From a virus: DNA of 64,000 bases. Shown piece after piece: positions 7,335-44,900 of this stretch; position 1 is the stretch's first letter; every line of letters starts with the position of its first letter. Position numbers and translations under genes: made by a program. The stretch spans positions 94,107 through 158,106 of the IMG/VR virus record IMGVR_UViG_3300031251_000003; one strand, given 5' to 3'. Below the pieces are notes generated by a model that was given only the letters and a program-made list of their open reading frames with translations, was not told the DNA's origin and ran no database searches.

Positions 7335-9152
7335 ATGTCACAAGTCATTCGTTGGGATGATTCGCTTAAATCGGACTTCAAGAAATGGGTAGACGATAAA
7401 AGTTCGGTTCTTATCATTGAGAATCATCCCACCTATCTATCATATCTGGTTGTCAATTCCTTTAACCCAGACTTCGAGGAAATCTTCGAGTCGGTTATTG
7501 GCCCATACAAGGCAATCCATAAGCTAGATATTTACAAACTCTTAGAAGCGGCCGAGAAGGAACAGTTCTCTGTCGTCTTCATCAATGATCCCCAAGAAGT
7601 ATTCGACTTCGTAGATTCGTTGAATGATCCTCTGCCGGTTAAGCTCAACGTCAATCTCTTTCCCTTCCAGTTAAGAGGGTTCAACTACCTGAAGGATCTC
7701 GATGCATCCATTTGTAATTGGAGTACAGGCACGGGTAAGTCGGTCTGGGCAGTAACATGGTCTAAGTACCTGCTCGAAACCAACCAGATCGATAAGATTA
7801 TCGTCTTAAGCAAGAGTCATAACAAGTACAACTGGCAACGTCAGTACAAGGGGATTGGCGATTTGGATTCCATTACTGATGAAGATGTCAAAGGCAGTAA
7901 CAAAACGGATGTCAAGAGAGAACGACGTGAAACTCTCTACGCCGACAATCAGATCATCATCCTCAACTACGAGAAGCTACGCTTTAGACCGGAGAACGAG
8001 AAGGAGAGGTTCCTAGCAGGGCGCAAACTTCCTTCAAGCTCAGGAGACGGCGCAGAGCTTCTCAAGGCTCTCAAGGGCAAGCGAGTGGCCTGGATCCTCG
8101 ATGAAGCTCCGTCTAAGCTTAAGTCTATGAACACCGGCTGGTACAAGGGGCTTTCTAAGCTTCAAAGTAAAACAAAATCTAATAAGATTACAGCACTCAC
8201 GGCTACCAAGATAGAGAAGAACCCGGAAGATCTCTACGCCTGGATTAAAGTATTAGATAAACAGATCTGGCCCACCAAGGTTAACTTCAGATATGCCTAC
8301 GCTAGATCGATGATCGGTTATCAGGTTCTCTCGTGGGATGCTTCAAAATTACCCGAGATTGGAATGAAGATCGCCCACTTCACTTCAAAGGCCGACAAAT
8401 ATCTCGACCCCGATATCCGTGACCAGTTCCCTGAATCACACCATGAAGATGTCTACATTCAACTTTATCCTACCGAACGTCGGATCTATGATGCACTAAA
8501 GAAGGAGATCAAAGACCAGGATCTTCTCACCATTTCTTCTCTGGCTCCGTTACAGATCGCCGTCAACAATGTAAGCTACTTGAAGAACTCAACTAGTCCA
8601 CTGGCGCAGAAGATAGCCGATCAGTTCAGGCCATCCGATTCTCATGTGGCGAAGATCGACAAATTACACGATATGTTAGATGAGATCCCCGGTAAGGTTG
8701 TGATTTTCTCAGCCTATACAGAGTTTGGTTCTCTGATGCTGGCCGACTACCTGACAAAATGGGGATACTGGTTTGCTCTCTATGATGGAGATGCCAAGAA
8801 GAAGCAGATGGCTCAGGATGCTTTCAACAACAATCCAAAGATCAAGATCTTCCTCTCGTCAGACCAAGGTTCAGATAGCATCAACCTAGAACAAGCCGCT
8901 AGTGTTATCCATTATGATCTACCATGGAACTCTAGTACATTCATTCAACGAATGAATCGCATCCATAGGATCACGAGCAAACACCTACACGTCTACTCTT
9001 ACTCCCTTATCGCGGATAAAACTCTTGAAGAAGGTAAGCTAGATACGCTCGAAAGGAAGAGAGTAATGGAGCTAGCCGTTGACGAACACTTGACAAATCA
9101 GGAAGATTTGATGCGTTCATTCTCTAGCGACCAGTTACGGGAAATGATTTAG
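7335..9152 (+). CDS. SNF2/SF2 family helicase
   Basis: LFPFQ, GTGKS, ILDEA, LTAT, INL..A..VIHYDLPWN...Q...RIHR motifs. Confidence 0.9.
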   Translation: MSQVIRWDDSLKSDFKKWVDDKSSVLIIENHPTYLSYLVVNSFNPDFEEIFESVIGPYKAIHKLDIYKLLEAAEKEQFSVVFINDPQEVFDFVDSLNDPLPVKLNVNLFPFQLRGFNYLKDLDASICNWSTGTGKSVWAVTWSKYLLETNQIDKIIVLSKSHNKYNWQRQYKGIGDLDSITDEDVKGSNKTDVKRERRETLYADNQIIILNYEKLRFRPENEKERFLAGRKLPSSSGDGAELLKALKGKRVAWILDEAPSKLKSMNTGWYKGLSKLQSKTKSNKITALTATKIEKNPEDLYAWIKVLDKQIWPTKVNFRYAYARSMIGYQVLSWDASKLPEIGMKIAHFTSKADKYLDPDIRDQFPESHHEDVYIQLYPTERRIYDALKKEIKDQDLLTISSLAPLQIAVNNVSYLKNSTSPLAQKIADQFRPSDSHVAKIDKLHDMLDEIPGKVVIFSAYTEFGSLMLADYLTKWGYWFALYDGDAKKKQMAQDAFNNNPKIKIFLSSDQGSDSINLEQAASVIHYDLPWNSSTFIQRMNRIHRITSKHLHVYSYSLIADKTLEEGKLDTLERKRVMELAVDEHLTNQEDLMRSFSSDQLREMI

Positions 9153-12316: not shown

Positions 12317-12597
12317 GTAGTTAGCAAGAAAGGGTTCCTCCGGTCGAAAGACTATGAGCCTTGTAGGTGTCGGGTGACCAGCCTGCTTGGTGATTGGATG
12401 CAAAACCGGGAAGTGTCGATCCAGACTCTAATATCCTCCGCGAGAGGGTGGCGAGGAAGGGGAGCTTCGTAGGGGAGTAGAGAGAATCCTTCCGTATTTT
12501 GGAGAATAGACTGTATTGACGTGGGCGCACGGAACGACGACCATTCGTGGTATGCTAACCCTAGCCCCGTCAATAGAGTCTAGGCTCTATTTTATGC

Positions 12598-12663
12598 TGT
12601 CCATCGTCTAATAGGAAGGACTCCGGCCTCTGCCGGGAACGGGAGTTCGATTCTCTCTGGGCC
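12598..12663 (+). ncRNA. tRNA-like element with 4-nt anticodon loop
   Basis: D arm, ccggc-ctct-gccgg, T arm gggag-ttcgatt-ctctc. Confidence 0.6.
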
Positions 12664-12672
12664 TAAGCAGAA

Positions 12673-12757
12673 CTAAGATTGAGGATCCCGGAAACGTCTT
12701 TTAAAACTGCTCCATCGCTAACATCGTTGGGGTGAGCGAAAGCTGGGGGAGTCTTAG
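12673..12757 (+). ncRNA. GAAACGUCU/AGCGAAAGC RNA module, copy 1
   Basis: Conserved boxes flanked by cccg/tggg and ctaagat/gtcttag stems. Confidence 0.7.
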
Positions 12758-12772
12758 TGATGAGCATAACTT

Positions 12773-12844
12773 GGGGGATCAGTGCTAATGGGGAAACGTT
12801 GCGCTTGCACCGCAAAGAAAAGAGTTCGACTCTCTTATCCTCCA
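12773..12844 (+). tRNA. tRNA-Ala(TGC)
   Basis: G3:U70; ttgcg-CT-TGC-AC-cgcaa. Confidence 0.9.
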
Positions 12845-12942
12845 CTGCAAGGAAGAAGAGTAGGTTGAGGGACGACGAATCCCAAAATTACCCGAATCGA
12901 TGAATCCTTTGAGGGTGTACGGGTCGTGCCGTTACCCAATAC

Positions 12943-13014
12943 GGGCGGTTAGTGCTAGTGGGAACACGCCGGTTTTGCATACCGGAGTCAGGAGTTCGAC
13001 TCTCCTACTGTCCA
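12943..13014 (+). tRNA. tRNA-Ala(TGC)
   Basis: G3:U70; ccggt-TT-TGC-AT-accgg. Confidence 0.9.
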
Positions 13015-13180
13015 TATGAAAGCTGATGCGGGATATAAGATGGTGGTAAGAAGGGGTACCGCACCAAATGAGTAGCCACCTTAAGCTTTCAGAATTGCCG
13101 ATGCCATTAGATCAGGTGGCTTAAGCAACAGCGGAACCTGCTAAAGTGGTTCGCGGGCAACCGGCGACAGGTTGCAACAT

Positions 13181-13252
13181 GGGCGAGTAGTTCAGCGGGA
13201 GAATAGCTGCTTTACACGCAGAAGATCGTAGGTTCGATCCCTACCTTGCCCA
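13181..13252 (+). tRNA. tRNA-Val(TAC)
   Basis: Cloverleaf; ctgc-TT-TAC-AC-gcag. Confidence 0.9.
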
Positions 13253-13435
13253 CTACATATTAGATTTGAATTAGCTGGCGAACCCCTTGACCGGGGTTGT
13301 GATGGGTTCGATTCCCAGGTGAGCGTGGTTGCCATGCGAGAGCCGTCAGTGAAGTTGAGTCATTCGGGATAGATCTCACGGTTACACTATTATTCTTAAA
13401 TAATGGTAGTGTGTTGGTTCGAGTCCAACGGTCTA

Positions 13436-13520
13436 GCCCCTATGTACCGCTGGAAGCCGGAAACGTCTCCGATGATACTTTAATCTAGGATATAGCGAAA
13501 GCTGGCTGAGGTATTAGGGC
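13436..13520 (+). ncRNA. GAAACGUCU/AGCGAAAGC RNA module, copy 2 (inside a ~550-nt structured non-coding region)
   Basis: Conserved boxes flanked by gccg/tggc. Confidence 0.7.
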
Positions 13521-13813
13521 GTCTTTGAATGACTTTATCTTAGACCGGAAGCGAATATGTACGGAGTCAAGCGTGACATATGGCTAACTCTAGTTGTCTC
13601 TAGAACTTGACAGAAGGAGACAACGTGGTCTTATACGGCGGTCGAGTCCCATTAAGTTGGGATTCCCGCCACCAATTTGAAACACCCGCTCCGGGGTAGG
13701 AGGCGTGAACTAGCGTAACTAGTTCGGAGGCTACTTGATCCTAATCGTAGCAGGGTTCGCCCTAAACAGCGTAATCAAGCGTGGTTAGCTCTAACGGGTT
13801 AATCACGCTCCAT

Positions 13814-13896
13814 ACCCCGCTGGTGAAATTAGGTAAACACGCAGGTCTTAGAAATCTGTGCCGCGAGGCTTACGAGTTCGATTCTCGTGTGGGGTA
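13814..13896 (+). tRNA. tRNA-Leu(TAG)
   Basis: Long variable arm; caggt-CT-TAG-AA-atctg. Confidence 0.9.
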
Positions 13897-14113
13897 CTTG
13901 GGGTGAGGTAGTCGTTGTCCGGGATAGCTTCCTAAGGAATAGGCTAGCGCTGGCTGATTTGCGTAAATCTGCACACCCTAAAACTTGAGTAAGGGCGAAG
14001 TCTGCTACATGCAGCAGATAGGTTAGCTTGTGCCGTGGTGTAAGGAGCCTGGGGTCATAGAATCCCGACAGACCCTCTGTATTTCTTCCATTACCGTGAT
14101 GGTAATGTGTAGG

Positions 14114-14350
14114 ATGTCTGGATACGAAAGAGAACAACAAAAAGAAACTCAGTACACCGATACGGCGGATTTCCCCCGTTACTCTGACTATGCTGGTTTT
14201 AGTTCTTATTCTTATCCTACCTATCCTGCTCAGAGTCGAACGTACGTCGTTCAAACTAGTAATTGGGATCAGACACAAGACTACACCGCTTCTGGTCTAG
14301 CTGCTACTCAAGCAACCTGGACAAGAACTGAACTGCATAACACTAATTAG
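14114..14350 (+). CDS. Small Tyr/Thr-rich protein
   Basis: ORF from ATG 14114, just upstream of the next gene. Confidence 0.45.
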   Translation: MSGYEREQQKETQYTDTADFPRYSDYAGFSSYSYPTYPAQSRTYVVQTSNWDQTQDYTASGLAATQATWTRTELHNTN

Positions 14351-14358
14351 AGGTTAAC

Positions 14359-14970
14359 ATGGCTAAGAGAAAGTTTGACGATAAGGCTACGTGGCGCACC
14401 GATACTTGGGGTATCGATATGACCCAGCCTGCTCGTGCCGAGCGCGTATTTGACCCTAACGATACCGTTACCGATGATCCCACTAAGGGTGGAATCGCTG
14501 GTTCTGGTGATAATACCAAGGTCACTCATGCTGCTGGTGTTATGTACACAGGATTGAATGATAATCCGGCTGTCGCTGTAGCTCGTGCATACGACGATTT
14601 CCAGAATCTTACTCCTGCTGTAACTGCGACTTTGACAACATCTTTAACGGGCGCGAACAATGACGTGACTTTCAGTGCTCTTCGTTCCGGTGCATCAGGA
14701 AACGCAATATCTGTAACCTATGTCGATCCAGGTGGTGCTACTGCTACTCTTGGGGTAACAGTCTCCGGTACCGATATCACGGTCAACCTAGGTCGAGCAG
14801 CATCAGCTATTAACACCACAGGTACGTTGCTCATCGCAGCAGTACAGGCAGTTCCCGCAGCAGCGGCATTGGTCAATGTGGCCAACGCAGCAGGTAATGA
14901 TGGAACTGGTCTAGTAACTGCTTTGACTAAGACGAACCTTGCTGGTGGTTTGGAAGCTTTCTACTCTTAA
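14359..14970 (+). CDS. Ala/Thr/Gly-rich putative virion protein
   Basis: GAGG RBS; 203 aa with a structural-protein-like composition. Confidence 0.55.
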   Translation: MAKRKFDDKATWRTDTWGIDMTQPARAERVFDPNDTVTDDPTKGGIAGSGDNTKVTHAAGVMYTGLNDNPAVAVARAYDDFQNLTPAVTATLTTSLTGANNDVTFSALRSGASGNAISVTYVDPGGATATLGVTVSGTDITVNLGRAASAINTTGTLLIAAVQAVPAAAALVNVANAAGNDGTGLVTALTKTNLAGGLEAFYS

Positions 14971-14973
14971 CGC

Positions 14974-15002
14974 TTGACAGCCAGTACCCTGTGTGATATA
15001 AT
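14974..15002 (+). promoter_or_regulatory. Sigma70 promoter
   Basis: TTGACA-N17-TATAAT. Confidence 0.85.
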
Positions 15003-15036
15003 ACACAGGTAAGGGAAAACGACAGAAAGGATTCCC

Positions 15037-15393
15037 ATGGCACTTTCAGCAGCAGAGCGCGAGACAGTGATTGTCATCTCGGATGCAGACGACTTCTGGA
15101 CTATCCATACTTGTCAGCGCCGGATGGTGACCCAGCTTCTCAAGAACCCGGTCGCCAAGATCCTTGAGAACACCCTCTTCGAGGGTACTCGGTTCCTCGT
15201 TGCTGAGGTTCCTGCGAATGGTATCACTGTTCGCAAGTCGAACGGTCGCAAGGCCAAGTCTTCGCAGCCGCGTAAGGCGACTCTCCGGACAATGCCGGGT
15301 GAGAAGTGCGGCGGCACCAAGTCTGATGGAAGTAAGTGCGGTGCAATCGCAGTGAGTGGTACGGGGTTCTGCCGCCATCATCAGAGCAAGTGA
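15037..15393 (+). CDS. Hypothetical protein with C-terminal C..C..CxxH zinc finger
   Basis: ERETVI N-terminus; KCGGTKSDGSKC...FCRHH. Confidence 0.7.
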   Translation: MALSAAERETVIVISDADDFWTIHTCQRRMVTQLLKNPVAKILENTLFEGTRFLVAEVPANGITVRKSNGRKAKSSQPRKATLRTMPGEKCGGTKSDGSKCGAIAVSGTGFCRHHQSK

Positions 15394-15539
15394 AGTGCAG
15401 TTGAAGTGAAGTAGTAGTTGAAATTGTAGTTAGTCTTCTTGGGAGGGTCAGGAGTCGGTTGTGTCCTTCGATCTAAGGAGGTATACAAATTACGACTAAG
15501 GTAGTAAGAGGGACTCCTGACCCTCACAGGGGACTTTAC

Positions 15540-15613
15540 GGGTGTGTAGCTAAGCGGTTCAAGGCAGGGGACTCTTAATCCCAAGATCACAGGTTCGAAT
15601 CCTGTCACACTCA
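15540..15613 (+). tRNA. tRNA-Lys(CTT)
   Basis: Cloverleaf; CT-CTT-AA loop. Confidence 0.9.
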
Positions 15614-15955
15614 TCTAAGCACGGTGGATAGGAACTATCCGCAGGAGCGATACGAGGATACAAGACCGATCAGGGGCCACTGTGAGGTCTTCTCTACCTC
15701 TGGCAGGGTCGCGGTGGGTACTAACTCATCTAGTGTATATGCCGGTCTTAGCCCGAATGCAGATGTTTCAGCGTATACATCTAGTAGGGCTTTACTTTGT
15801 AACACCCCTCTCAAGTACACGGAGGAAGGATACGAACGGTACGCAGCCAAAAGGGTCTGCCATATTGAGAACCGAGTAACAATGCTCAATACTTACCTGA
15901 TTTAATCAGGTATTTTACCGTCATCCGTCTGGTCGTACCGGGATGACGTTAGAAA

Positions 15956-16041
15956 CTCCAAGTGGTGGAATTAGGTATACACGTCAGGTTGAGAGCCTGA
16001 TGGCCATCGCGGTCTTGCAGGTTCAAATCCTGTCTTGGAGA
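15956..16041 (+). tRNA. tRNA-Leu(GAG)
   Basis: tcagg-TT-GAG-AG-cctga; long variable arm. Confidence 0.9.
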
Positions 16042-16063
16042 TCTCTTACAGGAGGTAAGAAAT

Positions 16064-16192
16064 ATGAATCCAATCTTTTGGCTTCTCTTGATTCTCTTGA
16101 TTGTCATCCTTTTGGGTGGAGCAGTATTCAGCCATCTAATCTGGGTATTGATCATTGTAGTTGTCATCCTTTTCTTCCTCTTCGGAAGGTAA
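16064..16192 (+). CDS. 42-aa hydrophobic membrane peptide (below the ORF-track cutoff)
   Basis: AGGAGG RBS; MNPIFWLLLILLIVILLGGAVFSHLIWVLIIVVVILFFLFGR. Confidence 0.7.
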   Translation: MNPIFWLLLILLIVILLGGAVFSHLIWVLIIVVVILFFLFGR

Positions 16193-16240
16193 GTCATGGC
16201 CGTTCCCTATTCTTATGCGGTCTGGGGTAACGGCCACCAT

Positions 16241-16313
16241 GGTTCTCTAGCTCCAACGGTAGAGCGGCTGTTTGAAGCACAGCGCGTTGGCGGTTCGAAT
16301 CCGTCGGGAACCA
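16241..16313 (+). tRNA. tRNA-Phe(GAA)
   Basis: gctgt-TT-GAA-GC-acagc. Confidence 0.9.
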
Positions 16314-16485
16314 CTGTAGTCGAAGATCCAAGAGCCTCGCTCCACTAAAGTTGGCTGTCTTATAATACAGCACCGGAAGAGAAACTCAAGGGGAGACGAA
16401 ATTACGGAGACAAATAGATTAAGCTCCGTAAGATTTATGTTCTATCCTGATGCGTGAATGTTGATCACTAACAAAAGGAGAGAAC

Positions 16486-16686
16486 ATGAAGACAGCAGTA
16501 GGTACTGAAGATCTAACAGGCGCAGTAGTGGTTGATGTTGGCTACAATGATGTGACTCTTGAGAAGGATGGAGTCAGGTTTACTCTTGAACTTGAGTATG
16601 AAGCCGACTACAACAGTTTCTGCGAAGGTAGTTGCTCTTGTTGTGGTAGTTCTGGCTCATCGTACTTCCGGGCCTATAAGGAATAA
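16486..16686 (+). CDS. Small Cys-rich hypothetical protein
   Basis: AAGGAG RBS; CEGSCSCC. Confidence 0.6.
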   Translation: MKTAVGTEDLTGAVVVDVGYNDVTLEKDGVRFTLELEYEADYNSFCEGSCSCCGSSGSSYFRAYKE

Positions 16687-16736
16687 AGAATCGTCTGTCA
16701 CGCCGGATCCTGACGTAAAACTTAGTCCGGCCACAT

Positions 16737-16809
16737 GGCTCTATAGACTAGTTGGTTAGGTCGCTACCCTCTCAAGGTAGAAGTCGGAGTTCGAGTCTCC
16801 GTAGAGCTA
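16737..16809 (+). tRNA. tRNA-Glu(CTC)
   Basis: ctacc-CT-CTC-AA-ggtag. Confidence 0.9.
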
Positions 16810-16812
16810 CTA

Positions 16813-16892
16813 TGATCACGCAGCCACAGGGCAGGGCGCGGCGACCCGACACTTTCTCGGGGAACATGGAGGTTCGAATCCTCTCGGGATCA
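16813..16892 (+). ncRNA. Aberrant tRNA-like element
   Basis: Acceptor-like ends and intact T arm; cccga-cactttc-tcggg loop lacks U33; abnormal D region. Confidence 0.55.
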
Positions 16893-17124
16893 CTGTGGGA
16901 TAGAAAGGGCAACAAAGCGATATAACTTGACGCATCAGGGAGAGTTAGTCCCCTACTATCCCCCTATACTTTAAGAACGTGTGTGTGACGCTGTGACGCA
17001 GCAGAGGCACACTTTCGGGCGGGGGCGTCACCCCACGGTACCGGCGCGGTTTGGGACAACCGTTGTAAGACGACCGGAGGCGGCTTAGCGGCTGCTGAGA
17101 GGGTTCTCAAATGTTCTTATACTA

Positions 17125-17195
17125 TGGCGTATCGTTCAACGGCAGGACGGGTGGCTGTTAACCATCTAATTCAGGTTCGAATCCTGGTATGCCAG
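17125..17195 (+). tRNA. tRNA-Asn(GTT)
   Basis: ggtgg-CT-GTT-AA-ccatc. Confidence 0.9.
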
Positions 17196-17266
17196 CTTTA
17201 AATTCGTAGGGCACTACTCGCTGGTCGGACTAGTTTGCTGGCGAGCAACCCTACGGCGCGTTTCAT

Positions 17267-17337
17267 TCCCCGGTCGTCTAACGGTAGGGCAGATGGCTGT
17301 TAACCATCGTATGAGGGTTCGATTCCTTCCTGGGGAG
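17267..17337 (+). tRNA. tRNA-Asn(GTT)
   Basis: gatgg-CT-GTT-AA-ccatc. Confidence 0.9.
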
Positions 17338-17501
17338 CTTCGCAGTACATTGTTCGTCGTCCGGGAGCATCGCGAGGCATAACGGGTAGCTCAGGGTTAA
17401 ATTCCCTGATAGGGCGGCTAGCCCTAGACTGAACGTATTGATCCTTACTTGTTAAAGCGGGTTTGGGGAATGTGGCAATGTATTGCGCCGGTTTTAATCG
17501 T

Positions 17502-17542
17502 CGCGGATTAGAGAAAAGGTCATCTCGTGAGTCTCATAAACT
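17502..17542 (+). pseudogene. Orphan 5' half of tRNA-Met(CAT)
   Basis: cgcggat acceptor strand, D arm and gagtctcataaact; no T arm follows. Confidence 0.7.
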
Positions 17543-17573
17543 TTTCATGAGTTTACGAACACTAATAGTAGAG

Positions 17574-17942
17574 ATGCCATACAAAGATCCCGAAAAACAG
17601 AAAGAAGCACAGGCTAGATTAAGTGCTGCTTATTATCAAAAGAATAAGAAAAAGATGAAAGTTCGTGCAAAGCAGTATACATACGAACATCGAGAACGTC
17701 TTAAGCAGTTTTTGATAGAGATAAAGTCTGCTCCATGTATGGACTGTGGAAATTCGTTTCCATCATGTGTAATGGACTTTGATCACCGTGAGGGTGAAGA
17801 GAAAAACGGTTGTGTGTCTGTAATGGTGAACCGCGCACTAAGCTTAGATAGAATTAAACAAGAAGTATCTAAGTGCGACCTAGTATGTGCGAACTGTCAT
17901 CGGATTCGAACCTCCACGCGGAAACAAGCCCTGGTGGGCTAG
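17574..17942 (+). CDS. HNH homing endonuclease
   Basis: CMDC...DFDHR...KCDLVCANCHRIR. Confidence 0.85.
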   Translation: MPYKDPEKQKEAQARLSAAYYQKNKKKMKVRAKQYTYEHRERLKQFLIEIKSAPCMDCGNSFPSCVMDFDHREGEEKNGCVSVMVNRALSLDRIKQEVSKCDLVCANCHRIRTSTRKQALVG

Positions 17943-17990
17943 GGAGTCTCATAAACTCTCTCATGGTCAGTTCGATTCTGACTTCCGCTA
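17917..17990 (+). tRNA. tRNA-Met(CAT), with an initiator-like 1:72 mismatch
   Basis: ggagt-CT-CAT-AA-actct; 5' half overlaps the 3' end of the HNH gene. Confidence 0.8.
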
Positions 17991-18149
17991 TTTCAAAATG
18001 CAACTAGGCCGACATAGTTGCGCCATATGGTGAAATGATCGGCATACAATTCTGTCTAACCTAGATAGGAGCGCAAATAATCATGAAGTAAGTTATAACC
18101 TTTGCTCGTATTTGAAGGTTAAATGATTATTCCGCATATACGTGAGACG

Positions 18150-18245
18150 AATGCCGCAGAAGCCGGAAACGTCTAGCAGGGTCAAGTCCGCGATAATCAG
18201 CTTGATGCATTCCCTGTGAATACAGCGAAAGCCGCCGCCGAGGTT
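18150..18245 (+). ncRNA. GAAACGUCU/AGCGAAAGC RNA module, copy 3
   Basis: gaagccggaaacgtct...agcgaaagc. Confidence 0.65.
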
Positions 18246-18388
18246 GAGTCTGGATTACAGTGTATGTGATTATATGATATGATTTTAAGTTTGATTCATC
18301 TTGACTGTGGAGCCGAAAGCTGAGAAGCAGATCAAGAAACTAATGTAGATACATCGAGGGGTCGCGCATCTCTAACACGCGAATATTT

Positions 18389-18478
18389 GGATAGGTACTC
18401 AAGAGGCTTAAGAGGATGGTTTGCTAAACCATTAGAGGATGTCAAAGTCCTGCCAGAGTTCGAATCTCTGTCTATCCG
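18389..18478 (+). tRNA. tRNA-Ser(GCT)
   Basis: Long variable arm; TT-GCT-AA loop. Confidence 0.9.
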
Positions 18479-18549
18479 TGTAAGACGATCCGAAGACGAT
18501 GGGAACGTACGCGCATATCATGCGTGGTGACAGTCTATTCGAGGATCAG

Positions 18550-18622
18550 TGAATTGTAGCTCAACGGTTAGAGCGTTCCCTTCATATGGGAAAGGTAGTC
18601 GGTTCGACTCCGATCAATTCCA
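18550..18622 (+). tRNA. tRNA with CAT anticodon (Met)
   Basis: ttccc-TT-CAT-AT-gggaa. Confidence 0.8.
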
Positions 18623-18710
18623 TTAAAGAGGATGGTAGCCGATAGGTTGGCGTGGGTGTGCTGATTCGGTGAGATGGTTCGTCCTGCCTCATAAGACCAC
18701 GCGAGAATTT

Positions 18711-18797
18711 GGATATATGGCTGAGTGGATTAAAGCGCTAGTCTTGAAAACTAGTATGTGTGAAAGCGCATCCGGGGTTCGAATCCCTGTGTATCCG
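18711..18797 (+). tRNA. tRNA-Ser(TGA)
   Basis: ctagt-CT-TGA-AA-actag; long variable arm. Confidence 0.9.
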
Positions 18798-18977
18798 TAG
18801 GATGGTTTACGACGTGGTAGTGTACGTTTGGCGCTTAAGTGCGTTCTGGCCGAGAATCAAAGGCATCCATCCTTGGGGTTAGAGACTTAGGATTCTGAGG
18901 CGAGCAACCTGAAATGGTAAGGAACGAATAACCGTTGCTGCGGCCTGTCGTTCAAACTGGATCAAGTCTCTTCTTTT

Positions 18978-19064
18978 GGAAACGTGGCCGAGAGGATTAA
19001 GGCGCAGACCTGGAAAGTCTGTTGGTATTTACGTGCTACGCAGGTTCGAATCCTGTCGTTTCCG
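18978..19064 (+). tRNA. tRNA-Ser(GGA)
   Basis: cagac-CT-GGA-AA-gtctg. Confidence 0.9.
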
Positions 19065-19067
19065 CTC

Positions 19068-19205
19068 ATGGGGTGAAAATGGAGAGTCGTCTAGTTCGAT
19101 TCTAGACTTGTGGATGGTTCCACGGCGGTTCAATTCCGCGTTATAAACTTGTGGCAGCAAATAGGGTAGCCCCCGCTCAGAGGGTTCAATTCCCTTACAC
19201 TCCAT
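19068..19205 (+). ncRNA. Structured RNA with three T-loop hairpins
   Basis: Closing helix atggggtg/cactccat; three TTCRATT-loop hairpins. Confidence 0.6.
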
Positions 19206-19250
19206 TTATTTACAATTAGGATTACTAATTACTCTTGTATAATAGATAGA

Positions 19251-19679
19251 ATGATTAATTCTAGAGTTTTAAATGAGAAAATAAAGGCCCAAAAGGAGAT
19301 TACGAATCAACGATTCGCTGATTCAGAAAAAGCTGTTGCAGCAGCTTTAGCTGCTCAAGAAAAGGCAACAGCGGCAGCATTTGCGGCTGCAAAGGAAGCT
19401 GTCATCAAGGCAGAAATTTCCCAACAGCGTGTCAATGAAAGTCAGAATGAATTCCGTGGCCAGCTTAAAGATCAAAATGCCGCTACGGAACGTAATATGA
19501 TGCCTCGTGCTGAAACAGAGTTATTGGTTAGAGAAATTCGAAGTAGTATTCAGGATCTTCAGAAGAGCCGAGATACCATCACAGGCAAGTCAATGGGGAT
19601 AGCTAACTTGACTAGCTCTGTCTATGCGTTTATCTTTGCTATTGCAGCTATTGCAGCTATCGCAGGCCACTTTCTCTAA
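19251..19679 (+). CDS. Coiled-coil protein with C-terminal TM anchor
   Basis: AV.AALAAQEKA...AV.KAE; hydrophobic C-terminus. Confidence 0.7.
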   Translation: MINSRVLNEKIKAQKEITNQRFADSEKAVAAALAAQEKATAAAFAAAKEAVIKAEISQQRVNESQNEFRGQLKDQNAATERNMMPRAETELLVREIRSSIQDLQKSRDTITGKSMGIANLTSSVYAFIFAIAAIAAIAGHFL

Positions 19680-19698
19680 TATGCTATAATGTGATCCC

Positions 19699-19851
19699 AT
19701 GAGGATCATTGGTGAACATTTCACTAGGCAGGGTAAGCCTAAGGTTACTTATGCGACCTTCCAGGGCGCTCAGAAGAAAGCACTGAAGCTTCATATGCGG
19801 GCTTATCAGTGTGGGTTTTGTGGCAAGTATTATCTAACGCATAAAGTTTAG
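19699..19851 (+). CDS. 50-aa phage zinc-finger protein
   Basis: TGnTATAAT 8 nt upstream; RAYQCGFCGKYYLT motif. Confidence 0.7.
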   Translation: MRIIGEHFTRQGKPKVTYATFQGAQKKALKLHMRAYQCGFCGKYYLTHKV

Positions 19852-19933
19852 GAAGATATCCGAACGGTTAGGAAGCGCCCTCGAAAAGCGCCGGTGTTCA
19901 TAGCACTTGGGAGTTCGAATCTCCTGTCTTCCG
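19851..19933 (+). tRNA. tRNA-Ser(CGA)
   Basis: CT-CGA-AA loop; long variable arm. Confidence 0.85.
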
Positions 19934-20148
19934 CTTATCGATAATCCGGGGATAGACCTAGGATTGTGACTGGATTAGGATCGCAACCTGATTACGGCAA
20001 TCTCATGATGGTCAGCTAGGGCCAGCACCTAGAATCGATTTCTAAAAGAACGACTCACGAAAGACTAGTGTAGGAAGGTAAGGGACGCAGGGTTGGGATG
20101 ACGATCTCGACGCGCCTATTTCTGTATCTTTCGTGGGAAGGTTTAACA

Positions 20149-20222
20149 CACGCCTTAGCCAATGGATAGGCAGATCGGCTCCAACCCGATCCAAAGGTGG
20201 GTTCGATTCCTACAAGGCGTGC
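20149..20222 (+). tRNA. tRNA-Trp(CCA)
   Basis: atcgg-CT-CCA-AC-ccgat. Confidence 0.85.
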
Positions 20223-20243
20223 TCAGTCTTATAAGGAGGATGT

Positions 20244-20576
20244 ATGCGAGTTCTATTACTGGTCTTGGTATTCTTGGTAATGGCAACGTCCGCGTTAGCA
20301 TCTCCACCCCGCCCTGCGAGGGCTTTCGATACCTTATGGTGTTGGCAATTGAAAGTTCAGTACACGCTCAAGCTGGGATGGCAAGCTAAGCATTGGAAAT
20401 GCAACCTAGGTAGTTGGGATCCGTATGCTAAAGAATGGACATATCGGGTCTGGGTTGATGAAGTAAAAGGTAGTCGTGTTTATCATGACTATGTGATCCT
20501 CTTTACAGACTTTGCTACTAAGAATTGGACACGAGTTCCCCATGGATATCCTGAAACAGGTGGTCTAAAGGGTTAA
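20244..20576 (+). CDS. Putative secreted protein
   Basis: AAGGAGG RBS; signal peptide ending ALA. Confidence 0.7.
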   Translation: MRVLLLVLVFLVMATSALASPPRPARAFDTLWCWQLKVQYTLKLGWQAKHWKCNLGSWDPYAKEWTYRVWVDEVKGSRVYHDYVILFTDFATKNWTRVPHGYPETGGLKG

Positions 20577-20916
20577 AGTGTGTACATCTCTTTCACTGGA
20601 TTCCAATGGTGTTCATGATTACAGTGACTGTGGAGCGAGAGCTTAGCACCAAGCGCACTCCTATTACTTGCACGGTTGGCTGATCGGTGTAAGCGCCACT
20701 CTTATAAGGTGGTTTAAGCTAGGTTCGACTGATATCCTGAAACAGGTGGTCTAAAGGGTTAAAGTGTGTACATCTCTTTCACTGGATTCCAATGGTGTTC
20801 ATGATTACAGTGACTGTGGAGCGAGAGCTTAGCACCAAGCGCACTCCTATTACTTGCACGGTTGGCTGATCGGTGTAAGCGCCACTCTTATAAGGTGGTT
20901 TAAGCTAGGTTCGACT
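20545..20916 (+). repeat. Perfect 186-bp tandem duplication
   Basis: 20545-20730 is identical to 20731-20916; the first copy ends within the tRNA T loop. Confidence 0.9.
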
Positions 20917-20929
20917 CCTAGACCGTGTA
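20856..20929 (+). tRNA. tRNA-Ile(TAT)
   Basis: ccact-CT-TAT-AA-ggtgg; nearly the same anticodon arm as tRNA-Ile(GAT). Confidence 0.85.
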
Positions 20930-20948
20930 CTTGTGCTATAATGTAGTC

Positions 20949-21443
20949 GTGAACGAAGAACGACAACAAGCTTGGAACCATTACTTCCAGACCGGCGATA
21001 GAGAACCAATCATCAAAGCCTACTGGAAGTCGATCAGTTACATTGCTCATGCTCGTTATCCGGCCTACGAAGAAGATATGTTCCAGGTCGGGCTAATGGG
21101 TTTGCTCAAGGCTATCAGTCGTATCGATGTCAATCGAGTCAAGTCTATTGATGCTTGGGTATGGTTGAATGTTCGTGGAGAAATGTTTAACGTAAAGCTT
21201 GCTAAGCCAACTCTTCCGATTGTTATCGAGTCAGAGAGGTTTGCTATCGAGGAAGACAAAGATCCAAAGATCTACATGCAACAGGCATTCGAGGTTCTAA
21301 ACGAGCGCGATAGGTATATTCTTGATAGTATTTACTATAAGAATAAGACACGTCAGGCTCTAGGCAAGGAGTTGGGCATTACCGGCATGAGAGTCGGCCA
21401 ACTAGAACAAAGAGCATTAAAGCAGTTGAGAGAAGTATTGTAA
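20949..21443 (+). CDS. RNA polymerase sigma factor (sigma70 family, regions 2 and 4)
   Basis: EDMFQVGLMGLLKAISR; LNERDRYIL...LGKELGITGMRVGQLEQRALKQLR. Confidence 0.9.
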   Translation: MNEERQQAWNHYFQTGDREPIIKAYWKSISYIAHARYPAYEEDMFQVGLMGLLKAISRIDVNRVKSIDAWVWLNVRGEMFNVKLAKPTLPIVIESERFAIEEDKDPKIYMQQAFEVLNERDRYILDSIYYKNKTRQALGKELGITGMRVGQLEQRALKQLREVL

Positions 21444-21516
21444 GCACAGGTACTCAAGCGGTTAAGAGGCCACTCTGATAAGGTGGTATGCGAAAGTTCG
21501 AATCTTTCTCTGTGCA
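21444..21516 (+). tRNA. tRNA-Ile(GAT)
   Basis: ccact-CT-GAT-AA-ggtgg. Confidence 0.9.
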
Positions 21517-21540
21517 TAGGATCGGATTATTGATCCAAAG

Positions 21541-21742
21541 TAAGGCGACCAATATCGTGGCGCTAGCGAAAATCACAAAAACGACTTTACAGATATTTTC
21601 ATTTGTAGGTTCGAATCCTACTCCCCGCTCTTCACGCGGGGATGGCGAAATTGGCAAACGCGCTGGGCGATCAGCCCGGTTGTGAAATATCAATCAAGCG
21701 AAAGTTGTGTTAGCTAGAATAAGGCGCGTGATGCTAGCCTTT
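21541..21742 (+). ncRNA. Circularly permuted tRNA-like RNA (YrlA/Y-RNA-like)
   Basis: Order is T arm, acceptor stem closed by a loop (tccccgc-tcttcac-gcgggga), then D arm, all on a long closing stem. Confidence 0.75.
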
Positions 21743-21769
21743 TATTTAAGGTTATATGCCTCTTATAGT

Positions 21770-21913
21770 CTAGTGAGGATCAAAGAAACGTCTCATGGTA
21801 TGGGCTTCCAAACCTATACTACGTGTAGCTCAAATGGGAGAGCCGCCGCCTGAAAAGCGGTGGGTTGGGGGTTCGAGTCCCTCCACGAAAGTAGCGAAAG
21901 CTTTGGGAGTTAG
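21770..21913 (+). ncRNA. GAAACGUCU/AGCGAAAGC RNA module, copy 4, enclosing a tRNA-Phe
   Basis: gaggat-caaa-gaaacgtct...agcgaaagc-tttg-ggag. Confidence 0.75.
21819..21894 (+). tRNA. tRNA-Phe(GAA) with bulged acceptor stem
   Basis: ccgc-CT-GAA-AA-gcgg; acceptor ctacgtg/cac-gaaa-gtag. Confidence 0.7.
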
Positions 21914-21945: not shown

Positions 21946-22268
21946 GGGAGCGTCCCGGTTTCGATGTGGAATTACGGTTCTGACTTCAATCCGTGGAAAC
22001 ATGATGGCCACGTAAAAAACATGTAACGTACTAAATGCAAACGCTAATATGAGCGTCCCGGACTTCATCCCTGATTGGGTAATGGATGAGTCCTTAGTTG
22101 CTGCTTAACTAGGAAACCTAATAAGCAGAGACTCTCAGGAAAGACTGAGTGGCGGAGGGGCGACTGCCCTCCATGCTTGACAAGTACGACCGTGATGGGT
22201 ATAATCTATGATTGTAAGCGTTAGTTCAACGATTACCGCAGACGCGAGTTCGACTCTCGCCGCTTCCA
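21946..22268 (+). ncRNA. ssrA: tmRNA
   Basis: GGGAGCG/CGCTTCCA acceptor with G3:U; T arm; resume context taaat-gca; tag ANANMSVPDFIPDWVMDESLVAA*. Confidence 0.93.
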
Positions 22269-24623: not shown

Positions 24624-24834
24624 GAAGAGTTAGGAGGTTGGCCTAAAGGCAGCCACCCTTTAAAGAGTAGACTTACGTGAGCCGACCACGCTGAGCGAAA
24701 GCCTATTTGAGAGTCATGATCGCGCAAAGGTGACAATGATCCCGCGCCCGGAATGGCAACATGACGAAGACCAAGGAAACGACTTGGAAGAATAAACGGG
24801 TTAGTCTTTTGGCGTAACAGCACACTATCTCTTT
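24624..24834 (+). ncRNA. 23S rRNA GTPase-associated-centre (H43/H44) mimic with ~143-nt insertion
   Basis: aggaggttggcctaaaggcagccaccctttaaagagt ... gcgtaacagcacact matches 23S nt ~1054-1105. Confidence 0.85.
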
Positions 24835-27101: not shown

Positions 27102-27177
27102 CCTTCAGTAGCTCAACGGTAGAGCGGTACGCTGTATGGAAGCGTTCGGGTTGCGAGTTCAATTCTCGTCTGAGGGT
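27102..27177 (+). tRNA. Atypical tRNA with extended anticodon stem (ATG in loop)
   Basis: Canonical acceptor, D and T arms; gtacgct-gtatgga-agcgttc. Confidence 0.55.
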
Positions 27178-27242
27178 CTTCTCGCTCGACACTCCCCTCC
27201 TAGGCCAATGATCTAGCCCGTGGGAAAGTGCGGCGAGTTCTA

Positions 27243-29990: not shown

Positions 29991-30317
29991 CTCAGTAGAT
30001 GGACATACGCTGCATCGTGTATCTATCGGTGTAGAGGAAGTTCGGGACATCCTTCTAGGGGAGCCAAGGAACCTAGAGAAAAACGTGCGGCAGTAGTGGG
30101 AGTCAGGTGCATTGGGTAAACCTTCGGGCATAATGCGGTGCTATCACCCTCCTGACGCCTTACCACGAGAATCGGCGGGATGCGATCACAAGCAGATACA
30201 TCAGCTACGATGATATCGGGTAGTGAGCAGCCCTTCGGGGCCAGGGATTGAACAGACCCTGAGATAGATGTATGTCGCCCTTGACAGGGTACAAAATTCC
30301 GGCTATAATCTACTGAA
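29991..30317 (+). ncRNA. rnpB: RNase P RNA (catalytic subunit)
   Basis: P1 tcagtagat/atctactga, P2 gacatac/gtatgtc, CR-I GAGGAAGTTCGGGAC, P5 catcc/ggatg, AGATAGATG, CR-V ACAAAATTCCGGCTAT. Confidence 0.9.
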
Positions 30318-30964: not shown

Positions 30965-31003
30965 AGCCCGGATGAGAGAAAATCTCATCCGGGCTTTCCT
31001 TTT
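30965..31003 (+). terminator. Rho-independent terminator closing the RNA island
   Basis: agcccggatgaga-gaaaa-tctcatccgggct followed by a T-rich tail. Confidence 0.85.
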
Positions 31004-41972: not shown

Positions 41973-44900
41973 CTACTCCGATCCATAACCATACATACGC
42001 TTCTGCCCTCGATGGTTTGTCTAAGCCGGAAGAGATAGTACAACGCTGCAAGGAATGCGATTTTGCCTCAGTAGGAATCACGGATCATGATGTTGTAGCT
42101 GGTCACGTAGACTTCTTCAAAGAGGTAACTGAAGCTGGTATCAAGCCTCTCCTGGGGATCGAAACGTATCAGACCATCGGGACGAGGTTTCAGAACTATG
42201 GTGGTCTAAGCAAGCGCGACGATCAGGGCGTCAAGAATCGTATCGATAACTTTCATCTGATCTTGGTGGCCATGAATAACACTGGCCTCAAGAATCTATG
42301 GGCTATGAATAGTAGTGCTCACTTGGATGGGTTCTACTACAATGGGCGTGTGGATTGGGAGCTTCTAGAGAAGTACAACGAGGGGATTATCTGTACCTCC
42401 GCGTGCAACCTCGGTATGCTCTCTCAGTCATTACAGAATAACCCTTATCTGCCCGACACAGAGACTTTGCTATCCAAGTATCAATCGATCTTCGGTGATC
42501 GATTCTATATAGAACTTTCAACATATTCAGAGGCATGGCAGCGCGATAAGAACTACCAGCTATCGCAGTTAGCGAACGAGCATGGCGTCCCCATGGTCTA
42601 TGCTAACGATGCACACTATGCCTTCAAGGGTCAGTACGAATTGCATGAGCTTGTGCTCTGTATGCAATACCAGGAGAAGTACGCTAAGTTAGAGGAACCC
42701 CATCACACTCCTGATCTCTATATCATGAGTGAACAGGAGGTCAACGATTCTTTCTTTTATCTCCCTCAAAGCATCGTTGACGATATCCTCGACAACACTG
42801 ATGAACTGGCCTCTCGGTGTGACGTTACTCTTCCAGGGCACAAGATGCACGTCCCGGTTTTTATCCCCGAAAGCAAGTGGGCTACAAGCCGGGATATGCT
42901 CTTTGATCTAGCAGTACAGGGGTACGAGAAGAAGATCGCCGCTCGTGGTCTTCCCGATGATGTCTACATGGAACGTTTCAAGATGGAGATGGGCGTCATC
43001 AGTCAGGCAAACCTAACTGATTACCTACTGACGGTTAGAGATTTCATCATCTGGGCTAAAGAGGAAGAGGGAATCCTAGTAGGCCCAGGTCGTGGGTCTA
43101 TTGGTGGTTCTCTGGTGGCTTATCTCATTGGTATCCACGAGATCGATCCGATCAGATATGGTCTGATCTTCGAACGATTCTATAACATCGGCCGTGAGGC
43201 ATCCCTACCTGATATTGACGTAGACTTTCCTACATGGGCACGAGAACTAGTGAAAGAATATCTCACTAAGAAATACGGCACTGAACTGTGCGCCGATGTG
43301 GGTAACGTAGGTTCATTCCAGGGTCGTAATGCAATCCAGAAGCTTGGTACAGCATTGGAGATTCCGTTCCCCGATGTACGAGCCATCTCTAAGATCATCG
43401 AAGGGTGTATCGAGTCTGGTCAGCAGCCTAAGTGGGAAGGGGAGAAAGGAATCTGGGCCAAGGCTGGTACAGAACTTGAACCCTATAAGCGTAAGCATCC
43501 TAAGCTATTCGAGTATGCTGAAACTCTTTATGGTAGGACTCAGAACTACGGTGTCCACGCATCGGGATTCATTGTCTCTGACGTACCGCTGAAGGATAAC
43601 TTCCCTCTCCGTTGGAACACGAAAGAGAAGAAGCCCGTTACTCAGTGGGATATGACAGTTGCTGAAAAGCTTGGGTTCATGAAACATGATATCCTGGGTG
43701 TTCGTAACCTCGACACACTGATGGAATACAACAAGATCCTCAAGGGTCGTGGGAAGCCCACAGTTGACTTCTATGACGTTCGCAGGATGGACGAGGACGG
43801 AGAGCTTCCCGAAGAGATGTGGCAGCTTCTAGACACGGGTAAGACGGTCGGTATCTTTCAGATCGAAGACACTGTGTTTGTCAAGAACCTAGCCAAGAAC
43901 ATTCGTCCACGTAATCTGGAAGAGCTTTCGCTCGTTACCGCTCTCAATAGACCTGGCCCTATCAAGTCAGGTGCTTGGAGTCGTTATGTCGATGCTCGTA
44001 ATGGGAACCAACATGAGACTATCCACCCCATTTTCCTCGACGTAGCTAAGGAATCCTATGGGGAGATCGTATACCAGGAGCAATTCATTGGGTTCTTCGA
44101 GGCTCTGGGATACGATCTAAAAGAGGCCGATAGTATCCGTGCTATTGTAGGTAAGAAGAAGAGGGATAAGATGGCCGAAGTAAAGCCTGATTTCATTAAG
44201 CGTTTCCGAAAGATCAATGAGGCTACTATCACTGATGAGCTATCACAACAACTTGTGGATAGTCTTGGTGAACAGATCTGGAAGAACCTAGAGCAGTTTG
44301 CCGACTACGCCTTTAACAAGGCTCACTCAGTCGAGTACGGATTGATTACCCTCTGGACTCTCTATGCTAAGTGGCTCAACCCAATCGAATTTTATCTAGC
44401 TTCAATCAAGTCTCTTGTGTCTGAAGGGATGAAGGGTGAGGTTCCGCGTTACATCCGTGAAGCACGGGCAGCGGATATCCCTGTCCTGCCCGTAGATATG
44501 AACCGCTCCTTGGCTCAGACTTCTATCGAGGATGATTCAATTCGGTATGGTTTCCAAGATATAAAGGGCATAGGTGCTAACGTTGCTAGATGGATAATCG
44601 AGCATAGACCTTACAGGGATTTCGATGAGATAATTGAAAAGGCTGAAGACCCCAACAACAAGATTCGTCTCAAGAATGGCGTCATGACCATGGCGGTCAA
44701 TCGTGGCCACGTAGAGAAGATGCGTCGGCTTACAGATACGGAAGGAGAGGAACTACTTGAAGCTGAGGAAGAGCTATTAGGATATGCGCTGTCCGATAAG
44801 TCTGCTAACATACTAGATGAGTATGCAGACGACATTGAACAGCTTTGTGTTCCATTCTCAGCCGCCGATTCCCCCGGTCGTTACACAATTGCGGGCGTTA

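Follow-up and report, generated by a model that had tools for sequence, protein, structure and literature searches.

What is the structure, marked by two short sequence boxes, that recurs among the tRNA genes of an uncultured phage, and what is it for, given the very different RNAs to which it is joined? The window analysed here is the 64,000-nucleotide (nt) stretch at positions 94,107 to 158,106 of the IMG/VR virus record IMGVR_UViG_3300031251_000003, the last 64 kb of a single-contig record of 158,106 bp that CheckV rates as complete. It contains an island of 46 tRNA genes and a transfer-messenger RNA (tmRNA) gene, all on the + strand, from ∼12.1 to 30.8 kb. An earlier note on this DNA had drawn attention to four copies of an RNA module within the island, each with the two boxes, a flanking stem and a slot for variable cargo. 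The module proves to be a conserved RNA fold with covarying stems; it is specific to one strand, occurs only within the island and can bear other RNA at either end. Its outer loop is predicted to be of the known kink-turn kind, and the composite module appears to be undescribed, with no matching Rfam family and no paper found that describes it. The reading we tentatively favour is that it may be a self-contained kink-turn 'handle' bound by one common trans-acting factor.

Two boxes form one helix of a covarying fold

Box 1 (GAAACGTCT) occurs exactly on the + strand at 12691, 13460, 18166 and 21785, and box 2 (AGCGAAAGC) at 12735, 13494, 18224 and 21893, each in an ordered pair with box 1; all of the coordinates given in the earlier note are exact, and all lie on the tRNA strand. 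By chance about 0.24 exact copies of a given 9-mer would be expected per strand (Poisson P(≥4) ∼1e-4 for each box, the ordered pairing not counted), and shuffled genomes contain on average ∼0.7 matches each to a structural descriptor made up of box 1, box 2, the closing pair and 4 or more flanking pairs. The interiors of these four copies measure 35, 25, 49 and 99 nt, in agreement with the proposed slot of 25 to ∼100 nt. Box 2 has two extra occurrences, one at 24694 (+), which is part of a seventh copy described below, and one at 43924 (−), which has no partner box.

For comparison, relatives were found with island proteins as anchors, giving three syntenic arrays and two to three more distant fragments:
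L028/L032: IMG/VR contig, 72 kb
L034: NCBI metagenome contig, 105 kb
L035: 10 kb

The boxes prove to be the two strands of a single helix, P2 (CGNCU:AGCG, with the N bulged), and the rest of each box (AAA and AAAG, respectively) forms an A-rich internal loop. From the outside to the inside, the module runs through a C-stem, a 3–4-nt bulge, tandem G.A/A.G pairs, a stem P1, a closing pair, the A-rich loop and P2 to the cargo. P1 is a freely covarying 4-bp stem which, with its G-C closing pair, comes to 5–6 bp across module copies. The core takes up ∼45 nt and the module 70–155 nt, with a total helical length of ∼20 bp.

Unguided RNAalifold prediction on six short-cargo copies returns exactly these ten pairs (P2, closing pair and P1), and 96.7% of the cells in this six-copy alignment can pair, as against 21–37% when the partners are slid by 1–3 columns. 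The covariation of the flanking stem proposed earlier extends to 11 instances from three genomes, in which P1 and the closing pair are paired in 54 of 55 cells, with 2–4 pair types at each position, compared to 3.1 of 5 with mismatched partners; non-cognate combinations of P1 strands are fully paired in only 14% of cases, so that the strands of P1 are instance-specific. G.U pairs account for 6 of the 55 cells, and the folded strand is therefore the + strand. The closing pair is G-C, A-U or G.U in core copies and U-A in the diverged, E-type copy of L035, and P2 shows a single U-A to C-G exchange (in the L034 copy L034_D), its bulged N being T or A. C-stem lengths over the 11 instances are 8, 5, 3, 5, 5, 2, 3, 8, 4, 3 and 7 bp, against a null mean of 2.1. 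The 5' AA of the A-rich loop is invariant in core copies, where it keeps a constant distance from the kink; in E-type copies it lies one to two pairs further off. Compensatory changes are found in every helix across the three syntenic relatives.

Single-sequence folding was uninformative (z-scores of −1.2 to +0.3). A reading of box 2 as a GC-GAAA-GC tetraloop hairpin was rejected, since E-type copies are unable to form it and RNAalifold pairs box 2 with box 1. The suggestion that two GAAA boxes might form a platform for the tRNA elbow is not sustained, as the boxes pair with each other, and by eye, without a formal search, no T-loop-type motif is evident.

Seven copies in the window

Three copies of the window and three from relatives were used to train a covariance model, R1, which was searched with filters off. 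As well as copy 4 of the earlier note (25 bits, E 6e-5) it recovers a fifth copy at 21568–21713 (16.8 bits, E 0.012), neither of which was in the training set; E-values come from a short calibration and are rough. Nothing else lies below E 0.5 in the window, and nothing else is significant in the rest of the 158-kb genome. Together with a diverged copy detected by a second model, R2, and a copy of reversed connectivity, the window holds seven copies, all in tRNA orientation and two of them only 50 nt apart. The four that had been counted are real, and three more had been overlooked (copies 5–7).

Copy 1: 12672..12758, + strand; C-stem 12672–79/12751–58, bulge TGAG, G.A/A.G of 12684–85 with 12749–50, P1 and closing pair 12687–91/12743–47, loop AAA/AAAG, P2 12695–99/12735–38, 35-nt hairpin cargo; R1 68 bits
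Copy 2: 13444..13514, + strand; C-stem gtacc/ggtat, bulge GCTG, tandem GA, P1 gccg/tggc, 25-nt cargo; R1 63 bits
Copy 3: 18153..18244, + strand; C-stem gcc/ggt, bulge GCA, tandem GA, P1 with a 2-nt bulge; R1 61.7 bits
Copy 4: 21770..21913, + strand; C-stem ctagt/gttag, bulge GAG, tandem GA, P1 caaa/tttg; R1 25 bits
Copy 5: 21563..21717, + strand; AAAACGACT...AGCGAAAGT, closing pair A-U, P1 caca/tgtg, C-stem ctagc/gctag
Copy 6 (E-type, diverged): 16315..16439, + strand; directly 3' of tRNA-Phe (16241–16314); R2 44.4 bits, E 7e-12
Copy 7 (reversed connectivity): 24694..24784, + strand; within the insert of a 23S GTPase-centre mimic

Copy 3 has a 49-nt two-helix cargo and an additional outer stem that reaches out to ∼18144–18256; its full fold is returned by RNAalifold on three orthologs, with 6 pairs showing compensatory changes. 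The stem of this copy had been called imperfect, and it does contain a bulge of 2–3 nt, which differs between the orthologs in sequence and length (cc, ta and caa). E-type copy 6 keeps the C stem, the bulge (GAA), the GA, a 7-bp P1 with two A.A mismatches and the A-rich loop, its P2 being CUC/GAG, and is followed on its 3' side by a conserved hairpin.

Copy 7 is laid out the other way round. Its 3' half comes first (24694–24712), followed by a C-stem (24713–18/24760–65) closed over a 41-nt apical part (24719–24759) and then by the 5' half (24766–24784: bulge GAA, GA, C, caag, G, AAA, CGACU); in this arrangement the open end of P2 faces the host RNA. That RNA resembles H43-H44 of 23S rRNA, the GTPase-associated centre, and occupies 24628–24685 and 24806–24830 of the window, split by the insert that carries copy 7; the Rfam LSU model aligns positions 1091–1152 at 21 bits.

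The outer loop has the signature of a kink-turn

On the 5' strand, G-A-N precedes P1, and on the 3' strand N-G-A-G follows it. The G after the 3' GA begins the outer stem of 2–8 bp, and its 5' partner lies 3–4 nt upstream of the 5' GA, giving an outer loop of 5–6 nt against 2–3 nt in which the asymmetry is entirely on the 5' strand; RNAalifold agrees on two independent ortholog sets. A bulge of ∼3 nt thus separates a Watson-Crick C stem from the NC stem, as the definition of a kink-turn asks. It reads GAG, TGAG, GCTG, GCA, GAA (three times) or GTTG in eight of the 11 core copies, the 3' strand having no extra nucleotides; the bulge of L028_3 and L034_3 can be read in two ways, as 1 nt (automatic search) or as GCUA, and L028_1 has no clear C stem or bulge. 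Tandem GA/GA pairs (1b.1n and 2b.2n) are present in eight of the 11 core copies and also in the E-type copies of four relatives, in the window's E-type copy as judged from the alignment, and in the two permuted copies. Position −1n is G in all 11 core copies, paired with C or U at −1b, while the L028 permuted copy has a U-A pair in this place. The gaggat...ggag which copies 1 and 4 had been noted to share is real and is part of this kink-turn signature.

The outer loop therefore fits the sequence definition of a kink-turn, and we infer that the module would adopt the kinked geometry. The same order of stem, bulge, G.A/A.G, variable 3b.3n and stem is found in Kt-7 of 23S rRNA, the 5' stem-loop of U4 snRNA, box C/D RNAs, SAM-I and T-box leaders. 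Box C/D RNAs have the same orientation as the module, the outer (terminal) stem being the C stem with its 5' strand bulged, and UGAGGAU of copies 1 and 4 may be compared to the C box UGAUGA, with CUGA of copy 2 equal to the D box. Compared to known kink-turns, the module adds an asymmetric A-rich loop at fixed distance and a fixed-sequence 4-bp helix with a bulge, and is unusual in having seven paralogs in one phage RNA island, in both connectivities. It also differs in having a 4-nt bulge in some copies and, in one, no G at 1b, and the phage has no L7Ae-family gene.

Three further comparisons were set aside. When kink-turn stems or the A-rich loop were sought with loose descriptors, the results were no better than those on shuffles; H42/Kt-42 of 23S rRNA has the opposite orientation; and an R1 match on E. 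coli 23S rRNA (2058–2127) has unpaired stems and is spurious.

Cargos include a tRNA-like gene and a permuted cloverleaf

The cargos of copies 1–3 are hairpins, whereas copy 4 holds a 7-bp hairpin and a tRNA-Phe(gaa)-like gene (21819–21891) with a good body, which scores 51.6 bits with RF00005 (threshold 29). The bulged acceptor that had been reported for this tRNA corresponds to two acceptor mismatches, at 1-72 and 3-70.

Copy 5 contains a different kind of tRNA-like cargo:
21605..21679, + strand: circularly permuted tRNA-like cloverleaf, found by ARAGORN after in-silico rotation

The T arm and 3' acceptor strand come first (21605–29), followed by a 6-nt linker and then by the 5' acceptor strand, D arm and anticodon arm (21636–79). 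With the halves swapped in silico, ARAGORN returns a 77-nt cloverleaf with a perfect 7-bp acceptor, as expected of a permuted gene. The T loop is TTCGAAT, U8, A14 and G18G19 are present by eye, and the module joins at the variable-arm position. G33 stands in place of U33, so ordinary decoding is doubtful. The permuted tRNA genes of Cyanidioschyzon merolae likewise have the 3' half first, a short acceptor linker and outer ends held by a helix, and are reportedly matured via a bulge-helix-bulge and a circular intermediate (Soma et al. 2007 are said to have described this). In the phage, by contrast, the host is bacterial, the break lies in the variable arm, G replaces U33, the splicing endonuclease (EndA, PF01974) and RtcB are absent from the phage, and the closing helix is not a bulge-helix-bulge, both loops of copy 5 being internal with nucleotides on both strands.

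Two other tRNA-shaped elements lie directly next to modules and cannot be standard tRNAs. One, upstream of copy 1 (12597–12665), shows acceptor mismatches and an anticodon loop of 6 nt; the other, directly upstream of copy 2 (13365–13440), has an anticodon-like stem of ∼10 bp and no clear D arm.

Conservation in a small lineage

Copy 3 is kept in L028 and L034, where its cargo stem changes from CAGGG/CCCUG to CGAGA/UCUCG. All elements of copy 7 are present in its L028 ortholog, with compensated changes at three pairs of the C stem (RNAalifold); the arrangement of the 23S mimic is the same in L028, while L034 seems to retain only its 3' part. The core is also kept between the positional orthologs copy 1 of the window and L028_1, although their cargos are unrelated. 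L028 has a module copy around tRNA-Ser(gga), and both L028 and L034 have a copy that encloses an RNA of unknown type (179 and 249 nt, respectively) just upstream of the tmRNA gene; this enclosed RNA (L028 15985–16200, L034 15244–15530) is matched by no Rfam family and lacks a homolog in the window genome. An E-type copy is found in all of the relatives examined (four loci), duplicated in one, and RNAalifold returns the E-type fold from them. L035 has an E-type copy; core-type copies were found neither there nor in the more distant fragments. Relative to L034, L028 contains at ∼8510–8730 an insertion of tRNA-Cys and a module copy, which by eye is enclosed by a 10-bp stem formed with the flank.

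The exact two-box pattern gives 27 matches in IMG/VR, about the number expected by chance, none of which has the flanking stem, and a stricter pattern matches only the one relative, as does the E-type pattern; the three matches to the latter in GTDB genomes are chance matches without tRNAs. A protein-anchored scan of a metagenome collection added one 1-kb contig, and more distant homologs of the 203-residue island protein are in unrelated phages without arrays. GenBank phages have no DNA match to the genome, and the sole protein match is partial and in an unrelated virus. In all collections searched, the module family is limited to a small uncultured lineage, and its carriers are rare, uncultured soil phages.

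Function of the module

If the module is a handle for a common factor, it would be transcribed on the tRNA strand as an autonomous structured unit, in which the kink, the fixed-sequence loop and P2 would make up one recognition surface for a single trans-acting partner. This partner would most likely be a host or phage protein, possibly another RNA, and would bind, stabilise, sort or process the island's non-standard RNAs. The carried RNAs comprise small hairpins, whole tRNAs, the permuted tRNA look-alike, an RNA of 180–250 nt in the relatives and the mimic of the rRNA GTPase centre. A shared recognition surface is suggested because the AA, the loop purines and the P2 sequence are fixed across old paralogs, in contrast to the free variation of P1 and the C stem. 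The module would be autonomous because copy 7 has the opposite end open within the GTPase-centre mimic, an arrangement that is kept in L028 with a fully covarying C-stem.

A number of points weigh against this reading. The search for a partner came up empty: homologs of L7Ae, L10, RNase III, EndA and RtcB are all missing from the phage (for the L7Ae family by profile search with PF01248), and no RNA-binding domain was found in ten island open reading frames (ORFs). The kink-turn is itself read from sequence. Two of the 11 core copies have GA/UA at 1b.1n/2b.2n, U at 2n being a tolerated kink-turn variant, and copy 5 departs further, with AA/UA, that is, A.A at the key G.A position (1b.1n) and A-U at 2b.2n, so that it lacks the tandem GA feature. 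The comparison has a depth of three to four related genomes, and the identity of the boxes among paralogs could be due in part to gene conversion instead of selection.

The main rival to a bound handle, which we consider rather unlikely, is a leader-trailer processing stem, in which the paired flanks would present the cargo to an endonuclease specific for double strands or for a site, which would excise it, with ligation possible for the permuted tRNA. Six of the seven window copies do bracket their cargo by leader-trailer pairing, and a tRNA gene is enclosed by one copy in the window and by one in L028. Flanks that pair around a stable RNA are also a feature of RNase III stems, as in the leader-trailer helices of 16S and 23S rRNA and the R sites of phage T7, the latter having conserved-sequence internal loops at several sites of one phage transcript; a total helix of ∼20 bp is in keeping with this, as are the RNA_ligase-family and CCA-adding-like genes of the phage, and the permuted tRNA would require cut-and-join maturation. 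However, the module differs from RNase III stems in its short helices and kink-turn signature, which breaks the coaxial duplex preferred by that enzyme, and no nuclease candidate was found in the phage. Short cargos differ between the positional orthologs copy 1 and L028_1, and the permuted cloverleaf has G33, not U33. In copy 7 and its L028 ortholog, moreover, it is the flank end that a loop closes, the cargo end being open, and excision there would only take off an arm; the reversal of copy 7 inside the rRNA mimic therefore weakens simple leader-trailer excision.

A purely architectural role also seems on the unlikely side. Here the kink would bring the A-rich loop to dock against the outer stem and so make a rigid cap, resistant to nucleases, that insulates the folding units of a very long untranslated transcript from one another and needs no partner. 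Use of the module as a connector in both topologies, the constant distance from the kink of the 5' AA that is invariant in core copies, and the free covariation of the outer and middle stems are all consistent with such a role, but a Watson-Crick helix of fixed sequence (CGNCU:AGCG) across old paralogs would be unusual for structure alone.

A more elaborate version of the bound handle, which we think quite improbable, is that the handle is an address label by which one protein or RNA-RNA assembly gathers the tRNA look-alikes, the permuted tRNA and the rRNA mimic into a particle acting on host translation, the permuted tRNA being cut and joined by the phage RNA ligase. If this were true, the permuted tRNA would to our knowledge be the first such gene outside certain algae and archaea.

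It is very unlikely that the module is an anti-termination or RNA-polymerase-modifying element which sustains transcription against Rho along the 19-kb untranslated island. The copies are spread over an island that has several consensus promoters and ends in a single strong terminator, but they bear no resemblance to put, nut or boxA, their position relative to promoters is inconsistent, two are 50 nt apart and one is embedded in another RNA.

The proposal of a new RNA family or a mobile domain of GOLLD or ROOL is supported in part: the element is a recurrent, covarying RNA with a variable slot, but a link to GOLLD, ROOL or T-boxes is not supported. Neither the modules nor the relatives match GOLLD, ROOL, T-box or self-cleaving ribozyme models of Rfam 15, either at the gathering score or at permissive E-values (up to 5–10), and no other Rfam family matches any copy at the gathering score or at E up to 5. 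GOLLD (RF01998) and ROOL (RF03087) resemble the module as non-coding RNAs near phage tRNA genes, and GOLLD can hold a tRNA; they are multi-junction folds of 500–800 nt, in contrast to a rod of 70–155 nt. That the module is a self-cleaving ribozyme, or belongs as a domain to a giant RNA like GOLLD or ROOL, is highly improbable: GAAAC and GUC-like letters and the site among phage tRNAs speak for it, but the CUGAUGA core is missing, the module is a simple rod without a junction, and tRNA genes and ORFs separate the copies. Hammerhead, hairpin ribozyme and bulge-helix-bulge motifs, when compared by eye, were a poor fit. Weakest of all is a DNA-level repeat, such as a miniature mobile element or recombination site, which we find scarcely credible: copy number does vary among relatives, and the tRNA-Cys and module insertion of L028 is absent from L034, but the stems differ between copies yet stay complementary, the G.U pairs fit the + strand only, there are no terminal repeats or target duplications, and every copy is in tRNA orientation.

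The usual view of a phage tRNA array is that of a list of tRNA genes, but in this island a good part of the RNA between them is built around one module used again and again. That a single module is joined to such different RNAs suggests that they have a partner in common and that the non-tRNA RNAs of the island act in a coordinated way, and the module offers a concrete bait with which the partner might be found. The island further provides an example of a predicted natural kink-turn connector, usable in both connectivities, and, in a bacteriophage, of a permuted gene with the shape of a tRNA.

Other features of the island and genome

Signals for transcription of the island are:
14974–15002, + strand: perfect TTGACA-17-TATAAT promoter of sigma-70 type, inside the island
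22177–22205, + strand: perfect TTGACA-17-TATAAT promoter of sigma-70 type, inside the island
30281–30309, + strand: perfect TTGACA-17-TATAAT promoter of sigma-70 type, inside the island
30965–30995: strong terminator, single, closing the island

Outside the window, the genome encodes a CCA-adding/poly(A)-polymerase-family protein (618-residue frame; genome C1:38869–39249, +) and an RNA_ligase-family (PF09414) protein (334-residue frame; genome C1:70404–70853, −). Among the tRNA genes, ARAGORN reports a tRNA-His with anticodon atg at 27102–27178 of the window and, in L034 (19230–19305), a tRNA with a four-base anticodon (taag). A 186-bp tandem duplication (2.0 copies, 100% identity) at 20545–20916 of the window spans the end of the ORF at 20244–20576 and most of tRNA-Ile(tat), leaving the first copy of the tRNA truncated.

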